A stretch of 64,000 nucleotides of DNA from Candidatus Latescibacterota bacterium. Lineage in GTDB: Bacteria; Latescibacterota; UBA2968. Under the pieces are notes generated by a model. It made no database searches, was not told where the DNA came from, and was given only the letters and a program-made list of their open reading frames with translations. Location: NCBI GenBank assembly GCA_965208125.1, contig OZ242320.1:3488001-3552000 (forward strand). Direction: 5' to 3'. The position numbers were made by a program, and so were the translations under genes. Shown piece after piece: positions 45,959-52,512 of this stretch (within the stretch, counting starts at the first letter, position 1; each line of letters begins with the position of its first letter).

Positions 45959-46220
45959 AAACGGACCTCAAAAAGGTAAAGTTGCAGGTTGAAGTAAAGA
46001 GTGAGACGCGAATCTCAGGGGGCGTTCATCAGTGGCTGAGACTGATTTCGCTAAGTAACCATTTACTTACTTATGGATAATATACAACATTTCGCTGCAA
46101 AAGCAACCACAGTTTTTTTAAAATTTCACCGTTACAGAAAAGACTTGCGATTTTGTTTCAATAGATATTTCATGCTGAAGTTTGGAACATACACACATTT
46201 ACTTTTTAAAGGAGACTCCA

Positions 46221-47102
46221 ATGGGCAATCGCGTCAATCGCGCAGTTGAATTGCTTTCAGAAGATCAACCGATCTATTACACGGGGGCACACACAGGGCA
46301 TGTGCTTACGTTTGAACAGGGGCAGAATGATGCCAGTACCTGGGCGGATTATATCAATGTGGGTATGGAACACGGGGCTTTTAATCTGGGAGGGCTTGAC
46401 GACTATATGCGCGGTCTGGTGAGCGGAGGACCTACAAATAGTGGACACAGGACGCCCGCTGTTATTGTTGAAGCTCCGGTGGAGGGCGCGTCGGAAAATA
46501 TCGTGCGCTACAATGCCTGGCAATTTCGACAGATTCTCGCGCGCGGTGTACACGGTATTTTGCTCTGTCAGGCGGAATCGCCCGATGCGATACGCGCTTT
46601 TGTCGAATCGTGTCGCTATCCCATTAACAAAAGTGGTGTTGGACATGGCCTCAGTACGGGGACGCGAGGCGTGGGGTCCGAATCGTCTGCTGCAGCGATA
46701 TGGGGTGTTAGCCGCGATGAGTACATTCAGAAGGCCGATCCCTATCCGCTGAATCCCGATGGCGAGTTGCTGCTGGGCATCAAGATTGAGAATGTGCGCG
46801 GTGCGTCCAATATCGAACAGATTCTCAAGGTGCCCGGTATTGGGTTTGCCGAAATGGGGCCGGGTGATTTGAGTATGTCGATGGGGTATTTGCACCGTCC
46901 AACGCCTTTTCCACCCGAAATGCAAGAGGTGAGGGATCGCGTGAAGGCCGCGTGTGCAGAAAATGGCGTTGCTTTTCTCGAGGGGGGTAGTCCCGAGACG
47001 GTTACCGCAAAAATAGACGAGGGCGTGCGCGTGGTTTCCGGTGGCAGAGAAGAGATCGCGCGTATTGGACGCGAATATTCAGGCCGTCGTATGCCGGTTT
47101 AA
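46221..47102 (+). CDS. HpcH/HpaI aldolase/citrate-lyase family protein
   Basis: MEHG, KIEN, GPGDLSMSMG; AAGGAG RBS. Confidence 0.85.
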   Translation: MGNRVNRAVELLSEDQPIYYTGAHTGHVLTFEQGQNDASTWADYINVGMEHGAFNLGGLDDYMRGLVSGGPTNSGHRTPAVIVEAPVEGASENIVRYNAWQFRQILARGVHGILLCQAESPDAIRAFVESCRYPINKSGVGHGLSTGTRGVGSESSAAAIWGVSRDEYIQKADPYPLNPDGELLLGIKIENVRGASNIEQILKVPGIGFAEMGPGDLSMSMGYLHRPTPFPPEMQEVRDRVKAACAENGVAFLEGGSPETVTAKIDEGVRVVSGGREEIARIGREYSGRRMPV

Positions 47103-47135
47103 AAAAATAGGGCTGTGCGATGTTTGCACAGCCCT
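47103..47135. terminator. Terminator between convergent genes
   Basis: A-tract followed by AGGGCTGTGCGA-tgt-TTGCACAGCCCT stem. Confidence 0.7.
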
Positions 47136-47157
47136 GGAGGTCCGATTTAATACGCGC

Positions 47158-47631
47158 TTAAAATGGATTGCCCTCGCGCGCCAGCTCAAATTTTCGCCAG
47201 CCGACTTGTTTGTTATCTTCGAATACTTTTTCTATCGCGTAAAAGGAGGACGGATCGTATTCTCGCCAGACGCCCGTTTTTTTCCCCTCCAAATATCGGC
47301 CTTCTTCTTTTTTTACACCGTTTCTAAAATAAGATATCCAATACCCGTCTTTTACACCATTTGTCCAGTTGCCTTCTATTTTTTTCTGTCCGTTGCTGTA
47401 AAATGTGATTTCAAGCCCGTCTTGCATGACACCATTTTGGTATGTGCCTTGCCCGCGCACGTTGCCTGCGGTATCGTAATATGTCCAAACCCCAGTGCGA
47501 TCGCCGCTGTCGTATTGCCCTTCTGCCACTACGCGGCCGTATTGTTTTATTTGTGTCTGTCCTTCAAATAGTGAGGGCATCTGACACCCGGCTGTGAGCA
47601 TTCCCACGAGAAGAATTACAACTTTGAACAT
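47158..47631 (-). CDS. MORN-variant repeat (YwqK-like) lipoprotein
   Basis: Lipobox LTAGC; repeats G-x-W-x-x-Y...NG..K.EG.Y..G. Confidence 0.8.
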   Translation of the reverse strand: MFKVVILLVGMLTAGCQMPSLFEGQTQIKQYGRVVAEGQYDSGDRTGVWTYYDTAGNVRGQGTYQNGVMQDGLEITFYSNGQKKIEGNWTNGVKDGYWISYFRNGVKKEEGRYLEGKKTGVWREYDPSSFYAIEKVFEDNKQVGWRKFELAREGNPF

Positions 47632-47873
47632 TTTTTTCTCCTGTTTCTTTGATGGATGTTTTAATGTAATATAACTAATATACAAAACTGCTTTCACAAG
47701 GCAAAGATGAAATGACAAATGACGTGTTTAATGCTTGTGCGTGTGCATAATATTATACCGGCTCTCAACTGCAAAGCGATTGCACTCAACGATCTCTTTA
47801 TTGTCACAATCGTCCTCTCTTCGTTATTTTTATTTTACAAACGGTTCGCCCATCGTGCGATAAAAAGTCCAAT

Positions 47874-48599
47874 ATGTTACTCACCGAACTCGGCCAACGC
47901 CTTCGCGCTCAACGGGAACGCCTTGGTCTCAAGCAAAACGACATTGCCAATGCCCTGCAGGTAAGCCCACAGGCCGTTTCCAAGTGGGAAAGAGGTGAAA
48001 ACGGTCCAGATATTGCTACTCTCGGACCGCTTGCCAGATTGCTCGGCGTTTCTACGGACTGGCTTTTGGATGCACATGGCGAAAATCAAGATGTTTTTGA
48101 TGCTACTATCTTCACCTCTACAGTTGTCGGTGCATACCAAAAATCATTACAAATGGAAGCGCGGGAGTTTGCAGCCTGGGCAAATGGTATTTTGTTTCAA
48201 CTGACCGAAGCTGTTTTGCGCCACGATGGCGTTCCGCTCAGATATATGGGAGACGCATTTTTGTGTTTTTTTTCTGGCGTTCACCATCAGCTTCGCGCTG
48301 TCCAGGCAGCGGCATTTTCTCAGCGGCTCATCAGTGAGGACCTGGTTATCGGCTTGAGTAGTGGTGAGATTTATTTGGGCGCAATGGGGCATCCCGATTA
48401 CGCCCATCCCGATGTGACAGGCGAAGTGGTCAACATCGCATTTATTGTCCGAGAATGGGCAGAAACAAATGTCCGCAAAGGAATTGCAGCAACGACATCC
48501 GTATTGAACAATCTCGATGAAGTTTTTGACATTTCCCAACCCACAGAAATCAATTTTCGCGGCATCAAAACGCCCATCTCAATTTGTCAGGTCAGATAG
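47874..48599 (+). CDS. XRE-family HTH regulator fused to a degenerate class III adenylate/guanylate cyclase domain
   Basis: RERLGLKQ..VSPQAVSKWERG..P..LGVSTDWLL; YMGDAF, IGLSSGE..G, TGEVVNIA. Confidence 0.82.
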   Translation: MLLTELGQRLRAQRERLGLKQNDIANALQVSPQAVSKWERGENGPDIATLGPLARLLGVSTDWLLDAHGENQDVFDATIFTSTVVGAYQKSLQMEAREFAAWANGILFQLTEAVLRHDGVPLRYMGDAFLCFFSGVHHQLRAVQAAAFSQRLISEDLVIGLSSGEIYLGAMGHPDYAHPDVTGEVVNIAFIVREWAETNVRKGIAATTSVLNNLDEVFDISQPTEINFRGIKTPISICQVR

Positions 48600-48644
48600 G
48601 GGAGTTCCCTGCCCGCGTGTGCCAACCGAGAGAAAGGATAAAAT

Positions 48645-50096
48645 ATGGCCGATATAGTGTTGCCCGATAGCGCGACTGATATTCAAATTCCCGATTATTC
48701 GCATCTGCTCTATAAAGTCGCCGATATGTCTCAGGCAGATTTTGGACGGAAAGAGATCACAATTGCCGAGCGCGAAATGCCCGGTTTGATGGCTGTGCGC
48801 GAGAAATACGCAGATCAGAAACCTCTGAAGGGTGCTCGCATAATGGGGTCTTTGCACATGACGATTCAGACAGCTGTGTTGATCGAGTCGCTCAAAGTGC
48901 TGGGAGCCGATGTGCGCTGGGCATCGTGCAATATTTTTTCAACGCAGGATCACGCCGCTGCCGCGATTGCGGAAACAGGTACGCCGGTTTATGCGTGGAA
49001 GGGCGAGTCGCTGGAAGAATACTGGGAATGCACTTTGCAAGCACTCAATTTTGTGGAGGGTGGACCGACTCTTATTGTCGATGATGGCGGGGATGCGACG
49101 CTGCTGGTTCACCGGGGGTATCAGGCAGAAGACGATCCTTCGATTCTCGATGAGCCGACTGATAATCGCGAATTGGAGATTGTCAATGCTGTGCTCAGGC
49201 GGCAACTCGAACGCAATCCGCGTTTTTGGCACAATATGGCCGCGGATATTCAGGGCGTGTCAGAGGAGACCACAACGGGTGTTCACCGCCTGTATCAGAT
49301 GCGGGATGACGGCACTCTTCTTTTTCCTGCGATCAATGTCAATGATTCGGTGACCAAATCGAAATTCGATAATCTCTATGGTTGCCGCGAGTCGCTCGCC
49401 GATGGTATTAAGCGCGCGACAGATGTTATGGTCGCAGGGAAGGTCGTTTGCGTGTGCGGTTACGGCGATGTGGGCAAGGGTTGTGCCCAATCTATGCGCG
49501 GATTTGGCGCGCGCGTGTTGGTGACGGAGATCGACCCGATATGTGCTTTGCAAGCGGCGATGGAGGGGTTTGAAGTGACGACTGTAGAAGATGCCCTTTC
49601 CGAAGCCAATATTTTTGTTACGACGACGGGCAATACGGATATTATCCGCATTGAGCACATGGAAAATATGCTCGATCAATCCATTGTGTGCAATATCGGG
49701 CATTTTGACAATGAGATTCAGGTCGATAAGCTGGTCGATTATACGGGTATTGTGCACGAAAATATCAAGCCGCAGGTCGATAAATACACGTTTCCAGATG
49801 GGCGTGCGATCTTTTTGCTCGCAGAAGGCCGTCTGGTCAATCTCGGCTGCGCGACCGGGCATCCTTCTTTTGTGATGTCCAATTCGTTTACCAATCAGGT
49901 GCTGGCGCAGATGGATCTTTGGGCACAGCAGCGCGAAGTCGGCGTTTATACCCTGCCCAAACACCTCGATGAAGAGGTTGCGCGCCTTCATCTTGAAAAA
50001 CTGGGTGTAAAGTTGACCCAACTCACGCAGAAGCAGGCCGATTATATTGGCGTGTCCGTCGAAGGTCCGTACAAACCCGGTCATTACCGGTATTAA
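48645..50096 (+). CDS. ahcY: S-adenosylhomocysteine hydrolase
   Basis: [37 protein letters not shown]. Confidence 0.98.
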
Positions 50097-50140
50097 CGCT
50101 CAGGGGCTGGGAGATAAGCTCTCAGCCCCAGCCCTATTTT

Positions 50141-51019
50141 ATGCGATTTTTAGACTATTTTACCGGCAATCAACCGGTCATTTCCTTTGAGATTTATCCG
50201 CCGCAGACGCAGGGTGGTATGCGCGCCCTCAAAGCGCGGGTTATTCCCAATTTGCTCAAGCTGAATCCCAGTTATATGACGGTTACGTATGGCGCGGGTG
50301 GTTCTACGCGCGCCAAAACGCTGGAGATTGCCTCGTTTATCCAGAATGAGTTTGGTCTGACCGCGGCGTGTCATCTCACCTGTGTGGGGTCGTCCCGAAC
50401 AGATATCGATGATATTCTGAAGGCGATTCGCACAGAGGGTATTCGCAATATTGTCGCGCTTCGCGGCGATCCCCCTCGCGGAGAGGATACTTTTGTGCCC
50501 GCAAAAGATGGATTTGCATACGGCAATGAGCTTGTGGCGCATATTCGCAGTGCAGAACCGAAAGATGATGGGTTTGGGTTGGCTGTTGCAGGATATCCCG
50601 AGAAACACCTCGAAGCGCCCGATTTCGATACGGATATTGCAAATCTGAAGCGGAAAGTTGAATCTGGTGGGGATATTGTTATTACACAGCTTTTCTATAA
50701 TAACGATTACTTTTTTCGCTTTGTCGATCGCGTGCGCGCAGCCCATATCACAGCACCTGTTGTTCCGGGTCTGATGCCGATTCTCTCGGCAGGGCAGATC
50801 CAGCGCATCGCGTCTCTATGTGGGGCTGAGATTCCCGGAGATTTGCAGGATCAACTCAAGGGGGCTGTGGATGATGAAGACAAGGCGATGAAAATTGGGG
50901 TAGATCAGTGTATCGCTCAGGCAACCGAATTGCTCGAACAGGGTGTGCCGGGTATTCACTTTTACGTGCTCAACAAATCCACTCACATGCGCCGGATTAT
51001 CAGTGCGCTTCCTCTCTAA
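50141..51019 (+). CDS. metF: 5,10-methylenetetrahydrofolate reductase
   Basis: SFEIYPP, VTYGAGGS, ALRGDPP, AGYPEKH, ITQLF, HFYVLN. Confidence 0.95.
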   Translation: MRFLDYFTGNQPVISFEIYPPQTQGGMRALKARVIPNLLKLNPSYMTVTYGAGGSTRAKTLEIASFIQNEFGLTAACHLTCVGSSRTDIDDILKAIRTEGIRNIVALRGDPPRGEDTFVPAKDGFAYGNELVAHIRSAEPKDDGFGLAVAGYPEKHLEAPDFDTDIANLKRKVESGGDIVITQLFYNNDYFFRFVDRVRAAHITAPVVPGLMPILSAGQIQRIASLCGAEIPGDLQDQLKGAVDDEDKAMKIGVDQCIAQATELLEQGVPGIHFYVLNKSTHMRRIISALPL

Positions 51020-51617
51020 GCGGAAACTTCTCAGTGATCAGCATGATTGGCTTTTTATTGGCGAATACCCTGTAGGTGCGGCTGAGTAGAGGTTCTCCTT
51101 CAAGGTGCGCGATGGCTTCCGGCAAATCCCGTGCGGTTTCACAGCAGCACCACAACAATTCACGGCGGGTTTCCAGTCCGCTGTTTTGCAGAATTCCTCC
51201 CAATCCCGCAGGATCTGATTCCAATTCGTCCAAAATGCCTTTTGGTAAGTGTTGCGGTACAATGAGAGATGTGGCATACGCCTGAATTTTTGGCGTTTCT
51301 TTGCCGATTGAGGGCGTTTGTAGTACTACTTGTCGCGCGATGACTGGTACTCCTGCTGGAAGTTCGAGCCAGATATGCTCGGAGCAGAGTGTCTGTTTCG
51401 CCTGATGGAGGATCGCGACTTCCACCGGTGCGAGTGTATAGGCTTCGATGAGCCTTGTGACGGTGCCGTCGGTGACGATCAATGCCCGCTGGAATGGCGT
51501 TAACTTCGCGATGTTGATTTCTCCAGACATCGCCGGCCTTTCGGCTTGTGCGATAAATATATTTTTTACATGCGTGTCAACAAAGGTTGCCGAACTGAAA
51601 ATTGAATCTGTCTTCAT
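51000..51617 (-). CDS. Chorismate pyruvate-lyase-like (DUF98/UbiC fold) protein
   Basis: TDGTVTRLIEAY, ETRREL, SRTYRV, ITEKFP. Confidence 0.78.
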   Translation of the reverse strand: MKTDSIFSSATFVDTHVKNIFIAQAERPAMSGEINIAKLTPFQRALIVTDGTVTRLIEAYTLAPVEVAILHQAKQTLCSEHIWLELPAGVPVIARQVVLQTPSIGKETPKIQAYATSLIVPQHLPKGILDELESDPAGLGGILQNSGLETRRELLWCCCETARDLPEAIAHLEGEPLLSRTYRVFANKKPIMLITEKFPLREEAH

Positions 51618-51747
51618 CGAGCTATTGTCCTTTCATATATACAGTTGTTACTTAACATCAGTGAGCTTTAGACACATAAGAAGAAAAAAAGTTCTTTGAA
51701 ACATTGCATGTGTGATTCTAATCAGTTATTTTGACGGAAAGGACAGC

Positions 51748-52512
51748 ATGCGTATTATCACATGGAATGTAAATGGATTGCGGGCGGCACTTCGCAAGGG
51801 GTTTATGGATCATATTAAGACGCTAAACCCCGATGTGATCCTTTTGCAAGAGATTCGGGTTTTGCCCGAGCAACTATCTGCGAGCGAGCGCAATCCCGAG
51901 GGATGGGATGTTATCTGGCATCCGGCTGAGCGCAAGGGCTATGCGGGTACTGCGGTATGGTCTCGCACGCCTTTAAGTGAAGAAGAGCGCGGTGTGGGGG
52001 AGGGCGATTCTGAAGGTCGGATTTTGCGGGTGAGTACTCGGGGTATTCAATTCGTCAGTGTGTACCTGCCTTCGGGGTCATCGGGCGATGAACGCCAGGC
52101 GATCAAGGAGCTATGGATGGATCGCTTTCGCCCCTGGGCCGATGGTCTGGTCAAAAAACGGATTCCCATAATTATGGGCGGTGATTTTAATATCGCGCAT
52201 ACCGAACGCGATATTTTTTATGCTAAAAGCAACGAGAAGAATTCGGGTTTTTTGCCGCATGAACGCGCGTGGATGGGCGATATTATCGCTTCTGGCTGGC
52301 GCGATTTTACACGGGAGCACTACGGCGATATTCAGGGTCCTTATTCCTGGTGGTCCAATCGGGGGAGAGCCAGAGAATTAGACCGCGGCTGGCGCATCGA
52401 CTATTTGTTGGGCAATGCAGCAGCCGCAAAGCGCGTTCAATCTGCCCATGTTGACCGCAAAGGCGGCTTGACCATATCTGATCACGCACCGGTTGTTGTA
52501 GATTTGAAATAG
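51748..52512 (+). CDS. xth: Exodeoxyribonuclease III
   Basis: TWNVNGLRA, LQE, GDFNIAH, GWRIDY, SDHAPV. Confidence 0.95.
   Translation: MRIITWNVNGLRAALRKGFMDHIKTLNPDVILLQEIRVLPEQLSASERNPEGWDVIWHPAERKGYAGTAVWSRTPLSEEERGVGEGDSEGRILRVSTRGIQFVSVYLPSGSSGDERQAIKELWMDRFRPWADGLVKKRIPIIMGGDFNIAHTERDIFYAKSNEKNSGFLPHERAWMGDIIASGWRDFTREHYGDIQGPYSWWSNRGRARELDRGWRIDYLLGNAAAAKRVQSAHVDRKGGLTISDHAPVVVDLK

Follow-up and report, generated by a model that had tools for sequence, protein, structure and literature searches.

A putative one-component regulator with a degenerate class III cyclase domain linked to the SAH hydrolase gene ahcY in Latescibacterota and other bacteria

To our knowledge, the control of S-adenosylhomocysteine (SAH) hydrolase is known in detail for Proteobacteria alone, where it is exerted by the protein SahR and by the SAH riboswitch. 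SahR consists of an ArsR-type helix-turn-helix (HTH) and a methyltransferase-like domain that binds SAH. Both of the known SAH-responsive regulons include ahcY among their core genes (PMC4239095). SahR is autoregulated, has a palindromic operator and counts ahcY and metF in its core regulon, whereas the SAH riboswitch (RF01057), an RNA element, controls the same ahcY-metF pair in response to SAH (PMC4239095).

Several other groups of proteins share parts with the regulator described below. The class III cyclases CyaB (3r5g), Cya2 (2w01) and CyaC (1wc0) are head-to-tail homodimers, whose pocket lies at the interface and contains a Lys/Asp pair that specifies adenine. Phage repressors of the cI/C2 type (P22 C2, 434, lambda cI) bind as dimers to adjacent operators, one of which abuts the -35 element, and have a C-terminal domain of the LexA/S24 type. 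Lambda cI at OR2, near -42, activates PRM. The actinobacterial cyclase-ATPase-LuxR proteins of the Rv0386 type are large and carry a LuxR HTH at the C-terminus, an ATPase module, and an N-terminal cyclase that is reported to be active. That such proteins combine an HTH with a class III cyclase domain in a single chain is reported in PMC3466318.

The window analyzed here is a stretch of 64,000 nucleotides from the genome of a Candidatus Latescibacterota bacterium (GCA_965208125.1, contig OZ242320.1). It contains three co-oriented open reading frames, a regulator gene, ahcY and metF, which are separated by gaps of 45 bp and 44 bp, respectively (Table 1). This order and spacing had been given in an earlier reading made from the sequence only, and ORF calls and NCBIfam matches confirmed both. 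The same reading knew of no described regulator of this type; literature searches, covering sources other than subscription journals, found no paper that describes the family or an XRE-cyclase protein regulating ahcY or purA.

Table 1. Features of the regulator-ahcY-metF locus. Coordinates are those of the window.
Feature	Position	Strand	Details
Distal operator site (weaker copy, TCAAC-N5-..GATTG)	47763..47785	+	PWM 10.9 bits; precedes the proximal copy by exactly 21 bp
Proximal operator site (family consensus AnTCAAC-N5-CGTCATTG)	47784..47806	+	PWM 20.6 bits; its TTG starts the -35 hexamer
Sigma-70-like promoter TTGTCA - 18 nt - TATTTT	47801..47830	+	Promoter-like sequence match
Regulator gene	47874..48599	+	241 aa; XRE HTH and degenerate class III cyclase-like domain
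HTH_3 (XRE/Cro-cI type) DNA-binding domain	47901..48065	+	Residues 10-64; PF01381, E 7.3e-16
Cyclase-homology domain	48093..48593	+	Residues 74-240; GHPDY arm = residues 172-176
ahcY (SAH hydrolase), conserved target gene	48645..50096	+	483 aa; TIGR00936, 630.7 bits
metF (methylenetetrahydrofolate reductase), third operon gene	50141..51019	+	292 aa; TIGR00676, 315.9 bits

Like SahR, the regulator is a protein encoded next to ahcY, and a physiological logic similar to that of SahR, which is also the logic of the SAH riboswitch, is probable. The two proteins are otherwise quite different. The window protein combines an XRE HTH with a class III cyclase fold, its candidate operator is a tandem CAAC-N5-CGTCATTG instead of a 20-bp palindrome, its predicted regulon in this genome is limited to its own operon, and the family is found outside Proteobacteria. 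The fold, the homologous sequence and the adenine pair are those of CyaB, Cya2 and CyaC, but the window protein lacks the first metal-binding Asp and the transition-state Arg, carries an XRE HTH fused to its N-terminus and is linked to ahcY. Its HTH is homologous to those of the cI/C2-type repressors and a similar arrangement of dimers on adjacent operators is predicted; unlike these repressors, it has a cyclase fold at its C-terminus, and its gene is chromosomal and metabolic, outside any prophage. Compared to the Rv0386 type, the protein is small, its HTH is N-terminal and of the XRE type, and its cyclase domain is degenerate.

HTH_3 matches the window protein with 58.4 bits, compared to a gathering cut-off of 23, with model positions 1-55 fully covered, and is matched in all 29 aligned relatives. 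The closest HTH domains are those of the P22 C2 and 434 repressors (E 3.2e-15 for the family profile against P22 C2). The Guanylate_cyc match (PF00211) of the window protein is weak (E 0.0047; 17 bits, under the Pfam cut-off of 21.9), but 22 of the 29 family members match at E <= 0.01, the best at 7.5e-21, and the profile of the 29 members finds the solved class III cyclases 2w01 (E 2.8e-17) and 3r5g (E 3.9e-17). The AlphaFold model of the regulator has a pLDDT of 91.2, and Foldseek superimposes it onto Cya2 (2w01), CyaC (1wc1) and CyaB (3r5g) with a probability of 1.00 and target TM scores of 0.72-0.79. Judged by the family profile and the model, the cyclase homology is real despite the sub-cut-off score of the window protein, and the 241-aa XRE-cyclase architecture proposed in the sequence-only reading stands.

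The regulator is predicted to be a homodimer. The prediction score is 0.55, compared to 0.00 for the best of three controls; in a benchmark, 20 of 30 proteins with solved one-chain pairs reached this mark, as did 1 of 23 solved single chains, although the score may mirror likeness to the solved class III cyclase homodimers. Prediction runs agree in at least 95% of the contacts, and the partner pLDDT is at least 84. The predicted interface spans residues 73-232 and includes residues 123-126, 172-176, 180 and 187.

The active site of the cyclase-like domain is only partly preserved. In the HMMER alignments, T83 aligns to the first metal-binding Asp (that of SDxRGFT) and I191 to the transition-state Arg of VNxAxR, whereas the second metal-binding Asp (D127, in the GD motif) and the transition-state Asn (N187) are kept, exactly as the sequence-only reading had it. 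The adenine-specifying positions are also kept, as R123 and D180 in the window protein; position 123 is Lys in 68 of 74 relatives and D180 is invariant. In class III cyclases, mutation of a metal-binding Asp or of the transition-state Arg alone nearly abolishes activity. Because T83 and I191 replace the catalytic Asp and Arg, we infer that the domain of the window protein no longer makes cAMP. Asp83 is absent in 64 and Arg191 in 71 of the 74 relatives. The family is not uniformly dead, however, because about ten relatives contain Asp83, and one of them, L069 from an Armatimonadota cluster, has all six catalytic residues; Arg191 is found in three of the 74.

All four clades conserve K123, D180, H173 and Y176. 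Outside the purA-linked clade, all 64 members retain D127 and N187. Members of the purA clade retain the adenine-reading Lys/Asp pair, but have P127, S187 and R88 (10 of 10 members) and E92 (9 of 10). These four positions contact ribose, phosphate or metal in true cyclases. The clades were delineated in a quick IQ-TREE phylogeny with SH-aLRT support.

Related loci were collected from genome contigs, which yielded 18 loci, 13 of them near-identical relatives, and from a metagenome scan added for diversity, of which the best 80 of 338 confirmed matches were used, a selection that leans to relatives of at least 46% identity. The resulting synteny set contains 74 distinct full-length relatives (73 loci and the window), seven of which have too little downstream DNA. 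In the remaining 67, the next gene is ahcY in 51, purA in eight, PPK2 in one and another gene in seven; two of these seven loci have ahcY or a homocysteine S-methyltransferase gene within 1.3 kb. As far as gene order can tell, the linkage between the regulator and ahcY is not due to chance. The purA-linked loci form a single sister clade. By source names, the family is found in Latescibacterota, Tectimicrobiota (Entotheonella), Hydrogenedentota, Omnitrophota, Sumerlaeia and Armatimonadota.

The position of metF is less conserved. It follows ahcY in L001-L013, in L020 and in five genomes without the regulator (L101-L105), and is absent after ahcY in the other long loci. By this comparison of loci, ahcY alone is the conserved target, and metF belongs just to the lineage of the window and to L020. 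The ORFs that were scanned included neither metK nor metH; L088 carries a homocysteine S-methyltransferase gene. Thus, of the expectation that homologs would stand beside ahcY, metF, metK or metH, the part that concerns ahcY held, metF proved to be lineage-restricted and the other two genes did not appear. The sequence-only reading had proposed a new regulator of the SAM/methyl cycle. The tie to ahcY is borne out by adjacency, a shared operator and the joint loss of regulator and operator, but not the methyl cycle as such, because the sister clade heads purA, and the family looks like a sensor of adenosyl or adenine compounds.

A search for shared upstream sites revealed TCAAC-N5-CGTCATTG, a motif that is repeated exactly 21 bp further upstream; this conserved tandem, the putative operator, lies over the -35 element of the regulator's own promoter. 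Of 75 distinct upstream regions, 58 carry a site of at least 15 bits, a count that is partly circular because 41 of the 75 had served to train the motif matrix; the other 864,232 nt of the loci contain two such sites. About 17 of the 75 regions, mostly from basal clades, score less than 15 bits. No such circularity affects the background, offset and co-loss controls. Of 56 loci, 35 have a positive-scoring partner at offset -21, and none of 30 other offsets gave such a partner. The motif is common to the purA-, PPK2- and ahcY-linked members.

The operator is coupled to a promoter-like sequence. A hexamer xAxxxT follows the TTG of the operator by 16-19 nt in 56 of 58 loci. The core promoters are weak: 41 of the 58 have just three to four of six matches in the -10 hexamer, and the -35 hexamer is variable in its second half. 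In the window, the promoter of Table 1 is the sole plus-strand promoter-like match between 47100 and 51700, and neither intergenic gap of the three genes contains one. The operator sites are centered at about -41 and -62, clear of the -10 element and the start, these positions being approximate because the transcription start, expected near 47837, was deduced from the hexamers.

Within the 5.75-Mb genome, the matrix has 79 matches of at least 14 bits, and a positive partner at -21 accompanies only the match at the regulator's own promoter; almost all of the others are single and apparently lie within coding sequence. No operator site was found at purA, ppk2 or the three homocysteine methyltransferase-like genes of this genome. 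The tandem site is thus confined to the promoter of the regulator itself, and a global role in this genome was rejected. The regulator is a single full-length copy, with no paralog found in the genome; the second match (E 8e-5) is to the HTH part alone.

Assembled RNA-library contigs bridge both gaps, regulator-ahcY in X1 (48364-48770) and X2 (48192-49783) and ahcY-metF in X2 (49995-50872) and X6 (50034-50257), but these are metatranscriptome assemblies that may contain carried-over DNA and cannot show a single transcript. One X6 contig (record 23) begins at 47773, upstream of the predicted transcription start, and the contigs of four RNA runs leave 47600-47716 uncovered.

No riboswitch was found at the locus. 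An Rfam scan of 46000-52500 gave no match at E <= 1, and a scan of 13 related loci with long regulator-ahcY gaps, at the gathering score, gave nothing; a riboswitch was therefore rejected as the explanation of the linkage. A genome-wide search for SAM-I (RF00162) found none, with working controls, and one for the SAH riboswitch (RF01057) gave no match, but its control genomes gave none either. Neither an ArsR HTH nor a methyltransferase-like domain, as in SahR, was found, the Pfam and NCBIfam matches of the regulator being the XRE-type HTH and the weak cyclase match alone. In these respects Rfam, Pfam and NCBIfam agree with the earlier reading, which had seen no SahR-type domain and no SAM or SAH riboswitch at the locus.

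Five complete genomes of the same genus lack the regulator and keep the HpcH/MORN/ahcY/metF synteny. The operator is absent from all five loci (best motif score at most 7.4 bits), which share another promoter-like element in front of ahcY-metF, ATTGAC[G/T]-17-TAACTT. In one of them (G081), a remnant of about 40 nt of the 3' end of the regulator gene is left.

The explanation that, taken as a whole, we favor on balance is an autoregulated, dimeric one-component regulator, whose dead cyclase pocket senses an adenosyl ligand. Local, autoregulated control of ahcY through the candidate operator is its most secure part and is very probable. The regulator would control its own operon of three genes from a single promoter and would dimerize through the cyclase-like domain, with dimers placed on the two operator sites. 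A ligand is probably bound in the degenerate pocket, where the Lys/Arg123-Asp180 pair at the dimer interface would read adenine and thus make the domain an adenosyl receptor. SAH is a tentative choice of ligand for the ahcY-linked regulator, with slightly less than an even chance. In this clade, a build-up of SAH would lead to more SAH hydrolase by ligand-dependent activation of the class II type, as by phage cI-type repressors at PRM. We lean to an activator, which is slightly favored over a repressor because of the geometry of the sites and the weakness of the core promoter. In the sister clade, the same DNA-binding head and operator would control purA, and the four changed pocket residues suggest an adenine nucleotide as the ligand. 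It is possible, but still more tentative, that the family as a whole has retained the XRE head and the tandem operator and has had its cyclase active site re-tuned clade by clade, for SAH and activation of ahcY in one and for an adenine nucleotide and purA in another.

The opposite sign of control is a less likely alternative, in which dimers on the -35 element block RNA polymerase until SAH or another adenosyl ligand releases them, as for SahR. The proximal site does overlap the -35 hexamer, the nearest HTH domains are those of phage repressors, and SahR, the known protein regulator of ahcY, is described as both SAH-responsive and autoregulated (PMC4239095). Moreover, the regulator is dispensable, since the relatives that lack it retain ahcY-metF. 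However, sites near -41 and -62 leave the -10 element and the start uncovered, the core promoters are weak, and the relatives without the regulator carry a different promoter with a near-consensus TTGAC -35 element rather than the old one; all three points are suggestive. In another alternative, the cyclase-like domain would serve as a ligand-free dimerization scaffold, and the protein would be a constitutive autoregulator with the role of buffering the expression of ahcY. The predicted dimer interface does contain many of the invariant residues (G172, H173, Y176, T111, E112 and N104), but we consider this improbable, as the conservation of the adenine-specifying pair and of D127 and N187 after the loss of catalysis, and the variation of the changing residues together with the target gene, are both hard to explain by a scaffold.

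A single ligand for the whole family, adenosine or an adenine nucleotide, is unlikely, though somewhat less so than the scaffold. Such a regulator would report adenylate supply or energy charge and tune the genes of the adenine pool. In its favor, the three recurrent target genes all touch adenosine or AMP (ahcY, adenosine; purA, AMP; PPK2, phosphorylation of AMP/ADP), and in L016 the gene after ahcY resembles an adenosine deaminase gene. Moreover, ATP is the ancestral ligand of this fold, whose adenine-reading pair does not vary. Against it stands the purA clade, whose differences at positions 88, 92, 127 and 187, fixed in 9-10 of 10 members, argue for different ligands or binding modes; furthermore, the window operon carries metF, which is unconnected to adenylate supply. 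It is highly improbable that the regulator is still an adenylate cyclase, or a bifunctional enzyme and regulator making cAMP on DNA. D127, N187, R/K123 and D180 are kept and L069 has the complete catalytic set, but the substitutions T83 and I191 in the window protein, and the absence of Asp83 and Arg191 from most relatives, speak against activity.

The tandem operator, the co-loss of regulator and operator and the residue changes in the purA clade are new here. Most family members are named 'helix-turn-helix domain-containing protein' or 'class 3 adenylate cyclase' in databases, generic names that make the function invisible in current annotation. The family would fill a gap in the control of ahcY in several mostly uncultured phyla, those listed above. 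If the preferred reading of an adenosyl-sensing pseudocyclase is correct, this would be the third independent invention of SAH-responsive ahcY control, after SahR and the SAH riboswitch, and the first pseudo-cyclase to act as the ligand sensor of a transcription factor, and a clear case from nature of a pseudoenzyme domain that took on a sensory role. The ahcY and purA clades, which have the same DNA-binding head and operator and four differences in the pocket, offer a built-in comparison. Operator, promoter and protein make up a small, self-contained set, which could serve as an SAH biosensor if the regulator responds to SAH.

The regulator gene, ahcY and metF are co-oriented and separated by gaps of 45 bp and 44 bp, respectively, exactly as the sequence-only reading had described them. 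A MORN-repeat gene diverges upstream of the regulator gene (ORF and Pfam scan). The promoter scan detects no promoter-like match in either gap. The plus strand terminator-like matches all lie inside ORFs, at a frequency no higher than in shuffled sequence, and none is found between metF and the convergent chorismate-lyase-like gene; the 3' ends of these two genes overlap by 20 bp (51000-51019). In metatranscriptome libraries of three studies, contigs span the regulator/ahcY junction (X1 48364-48770, X2 48192-49783) as well as the ahcY/metF junction (X2 49995-50872, X6 50034-50257), although DNA carry-over is possible and the contigs cannot prove a single transcript. One X6 contig begins at 47773, upstream of the expected transcription start. 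No Rfam family matches the region 46000-52500 at E <= 1, in line with the earlier statement that no SAM or SAH riboswitch is seen here.

Features of the regulator-ahcY-metF locus (window positions)
Feature	Position	Strand	Details
Distal operator site (predicted)	47763-47785	+	10.9 bits
Proximal operator site (predicted)	47784-47806	+	20.6 bits
Promoter TTGTCA-18-TATTTT (predicted)	47801-47830	+	only + strand candidate in 47100-51700 (promoter scan)
Regulator gene	47874-48599	+	241 aa; PF01381 full XRE-type HTH, 58.4 bits (Pfam)
ahcY, adenosylhomocysteinase	48645-50096	+	483 aa; TIGR00936, 630.7 bits (NCBIfam)
metF, methylenetetrahydrofolate reductase	50141-51019	+	292 aa; TIGR00676, 315.9 bits (NCBIfam)
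Chorismate-lyase-like gene	51000-51617	-	convergent with metF

The whole neighborhood is common to thirteen near-identical Latescibacterota genomes, which were left out of the counts because they are not independent. A metagenome scan gave 338 confirmed matches. The best 80 of these, the genomic loci L014-L018 and the window comprise 86 places; seven with an incomplete regulator and five more identical copies were dropped, leaving 74 distinct regulators. Directly downstream on the same strand, 51 of the 74 have ahcY, so adjacency to a methionine-cycle gene is indeed repeated. In that position 8 have purA, one has a two-domain PPK2 and 7 have another gene; in 7 with less than 300 bp of downstream DNA the following gene is undeterminable. 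At two of the loci with another gene, ahcY lies 1.2 kb further, behind a 99-aa ORF (L058), or a homocysteine S-methyltransferase gene lies 0.8 kb further (L088). Judged by source names, the members come from Latescibacterota, Entotheonella (Tectimicrobiota), Hydrogenedentota, Omnitrophota, Sumerlaeia and Armatimonadota.

The gene after ahcY varies and is often on the opposite strand. It is a NUDIX gene in one locus, an adenosine deaminase-like gene 101 bp after ahcY in Entotheonella (L016:8579-9835), and a bona fide FHA-GAF-class III cyclase gene 16 bp after ahcY in L062 (7290-9104). Only the window's lineage and L020 have metF behind ahcY, so the conserved unit is regulator-ahcY. Of the proposed ahcY-metF target, the ahcY part is conserved across phyla, but the metF part is confined to these few cases. 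In L098 (5001-7344) a gene for a two-domain polyphosphate kinase 2 (PPK2) comes after the regulator in place of ahcY or purA, and in L073 and L074 a convergent PPK2 gene is positioned just behind regulator-purA, about 1.5 kb after purA. These genes form a recurrent link to adenylate phosphorylation.

A candidate operator motif emerged from inspection of the 110 bases upstream of each regulator gene, and a 23-position matrix was derived from 41 seeds. The matrix consensus, AnTCAAC-N5-CGTCATTG, is an imperfect inverted repeat, CAAnnAC-N3-GTnnTTG. The common upstream palindrome that the sequence-only reading suggested looking for thus exists: a site of at least 15 bits is present in 58 of 75 distinct upstream regions, and the rest of these loci (864,232 nt, searched on both strands) has only 2. 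One of the two is a near-identical second proximal operator in L017 (5398-5776), 603 bp upstream of the regulator and before an inserted 108-aa HigA-like XRE ORF; it looks like the result of an insertion that duplicated the promoter region. A weaker second site is located exactly 21 bp upstream, with positive scores at -21 in 35 of 56 loci and at none of the 30 other offsets between -40 and -10. In 56 of 58 loci the invariant TTG is followed, 16-19 nt later (mostly 17), by a hexamer whose second base is A and whose sixth is T, compared to a chance estimate of about one in five. Because of this spacing, the motif is predicted to end in the -35 hexamer, which would center the two sites near -41 and -62. 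The motif is common to ahcY-, purA- and PPK2-linked members, and this fits their nearly identical recognition helices.

In the window's own 5.75-Mb genome the matrix has 79 matches of at least 14 bits, and a positive-scoring partner at -21 accompanies just one of them, that at the promoter of the regulator itself. Neither purA nor ppk2 of this genome has an operator site, and the genome contains no second full-length copy of the regulator. For these reasons the protein appears to be a local regulator here. Two of the best single matches, near 1417271 (-) and 2828270 (+) of G000:C1, lack the partner at -21 and share a hairpin-like GTCATTGCGGCA..TTT..GCCGC; they probably belong to an unrelated repeated element or terminator.

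The regulator gene is found in 28 of 168 genomes of the phylum at E <= 1e-30 and in 14 of 20 genomes of the window's genus. Five complete genomes of the same genus that lack it (G081, G082, G085, G091 and G087; loci L101-L105) keep the order HpcH, MORN, ahcY, metF. In these five the operator is not found (best matrix score at most 7.4 bits). Their ahcY is preceded by a common promoter-like element, ATTGAC(G/T)-17-TAACTT, part of which aligns with 3' coding sequence of the window's regulator gene (compare 48500-48660). G081, the ahcY of which is 97% identical to that of the window, retains about 40 nt that match the regulator gene's 3' end. Since the relatives without the gene are also without the motif and G081 keeps a remnant, the regulator, operator and promoter appear to have been removed together. 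Their ahcY-metF would then be driven by another promoter with a better -35. It looks as if the regulator was lost by deletion and the new promoter evolved from, or recombined into, the former coding sequence.

The cyclase half of the regulator is a real homolog of class III cyclases with a degenerate catalytic set. The window protein matches PF00211 below threshold (17 bits versus 21.9), and 22 of 29 diverse aligned members match it at E <= 0.01. The family profile built from these 29 members matches the solved cyclases Cya2 (2w01, E 2.8e-17) and CyaB (3r5g, E 3.9e-17), and its N-terminus matches the P22 C2 repressor (E 3.2e-15). With the AlphaFold model (pLDDT 91.2, pTM 0.71), Foldseek returns Cya2, CyaC and CyaB at probability 1.00 and target TM of 0.72-0.79. 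A word-index search matched 876 proteins at E <= 0.001, the best 120 of which are all 240-316 aa long and 56-96% identical; an exhaustive search gave 50 clusters (50% identity) at E <= 1e-30.

In HMMER alignments of the profile to the solved cyclases, the first metal Asp is replaced by T83 and the transition-state Arg by I191. The second metal Asp (D127), the adenine-specifying pair (R123, Lys in 68 of 74 relatives, and D180) and the transition-state Asn (N187) are kept. The residues originally read from the sequence alone are therefore correct; the retention of both adenine-reading positions is an addition to that reading. With two catalytic features missing the protein is not classed as a cyclase, and it has presumably ceased to cyclize ATP. 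The regulator of metagenome contig L069 (5001-5741), whose protein cluster includes Armatimonadota records, has all six canonical residues: D83, K123, D127, D180, N187 and R191. It adjoins neither ahcY nor purA and has an operator-like site 224 bp upstream. This member may have remained an active HTH-cyclase and may show what the ancestor of the family was like.

The predicted homodimer passed its test with a score of 0.55, the best of three controls reaching 0.00; among proteins with solved structures, 20 of 30 one-chain pairs and 1 of 23 single chains reach the same mark. Since class III cyclase dimers have already been solved, resemblance to them may explain the pass. Contact agreement between runs is at least 95% and partner pLDDT at least 84. 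The predicted interface is symmetric and wholly within residues 73-232, the cyclase-like domain. In it the invariant GHPDY arm (172-176) packs on the partner's helix 100-112; residues 123-126, 180 and 187 also belong to the interface, as in class III cyclase dimers, where the pocket lies between subunits.

The regulator would work like SahR but has no domain in common with it (Pfam, NCBIfam). It would also work like the SAH riboswitch, which is RNA; Rfam detects no riboswitch at the window locus, nor in 13 related loci at gathering score. Cyclase-plus-HTH proteins are known in Actinobacteria (PMC3466318). Those are large and carry a C-terminal LuxR HTH. An XRE-cyclase regulator of ahcY or purA is not described in the literature searched, which covers few subscription journals, and the original claim of novelty holds to that extent. 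The protein is very probably a one-component regulator, and its putative sensor domain would be without precedent.

In a quick IQ-TREE tree of the 74 regulators, a single clade of 10 rows (SH-aLRT 99) holds the purA-linked members: 8 rows are purA, 1 is other and 1 is too short. The sister clade contains 43 rows, 40 ahcY and 3 too short (SH-aLRT 96), and deeper clades are again mostly ahcY-linked. K123, H173, Y176 and D180 are conserved in all clades. P127, S187 and R88 occur in every one of the 10 purA-clade rows and E92 in 9 of them. Outside this clade all 64 rows carry D127 and N187, and in the main ahcY clade position 88 is Y or H and position 92 mostly L. From the cyclase alignment and cyclase structures, positions 88, 92, 127 and 187 presumably face the ribose, phosphates and metal rather than the base. 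This is exactly where SAH and an adenine nucleotide differ, which suggests clade-specific ligands with a common adenosine moiety. In the ahcY-linked clade the ligand may well be SAH, because the two known SAH-responsive systems, SahR and the SAH riboswitch, both have ahcY as their core target (PMC4239095).

The architecture, fold and residue pattern, the position before ahcY, the tandem motif on the -35 and the joint absence of gene and motif are observed; beyond them, regulator dimers would occupy both operator sites and the cyclase-like pocket would bind an adenosyl ligand. A repressor like SahR is a serious rival. Ligand-dependent, class II-type activation seems slightly more likely, because sites centered at -41 and -62 would not cover the -10, the hexamers at the -10 are weak (41 of 58 loci have 3-4 of 6 matches), and a stronger -35 is seen in the promoter that replaces the original one in relatives without the regulator. 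The phage cI-like HTH provides a precedent for such activation: cI bound at OR2 activates PRM.
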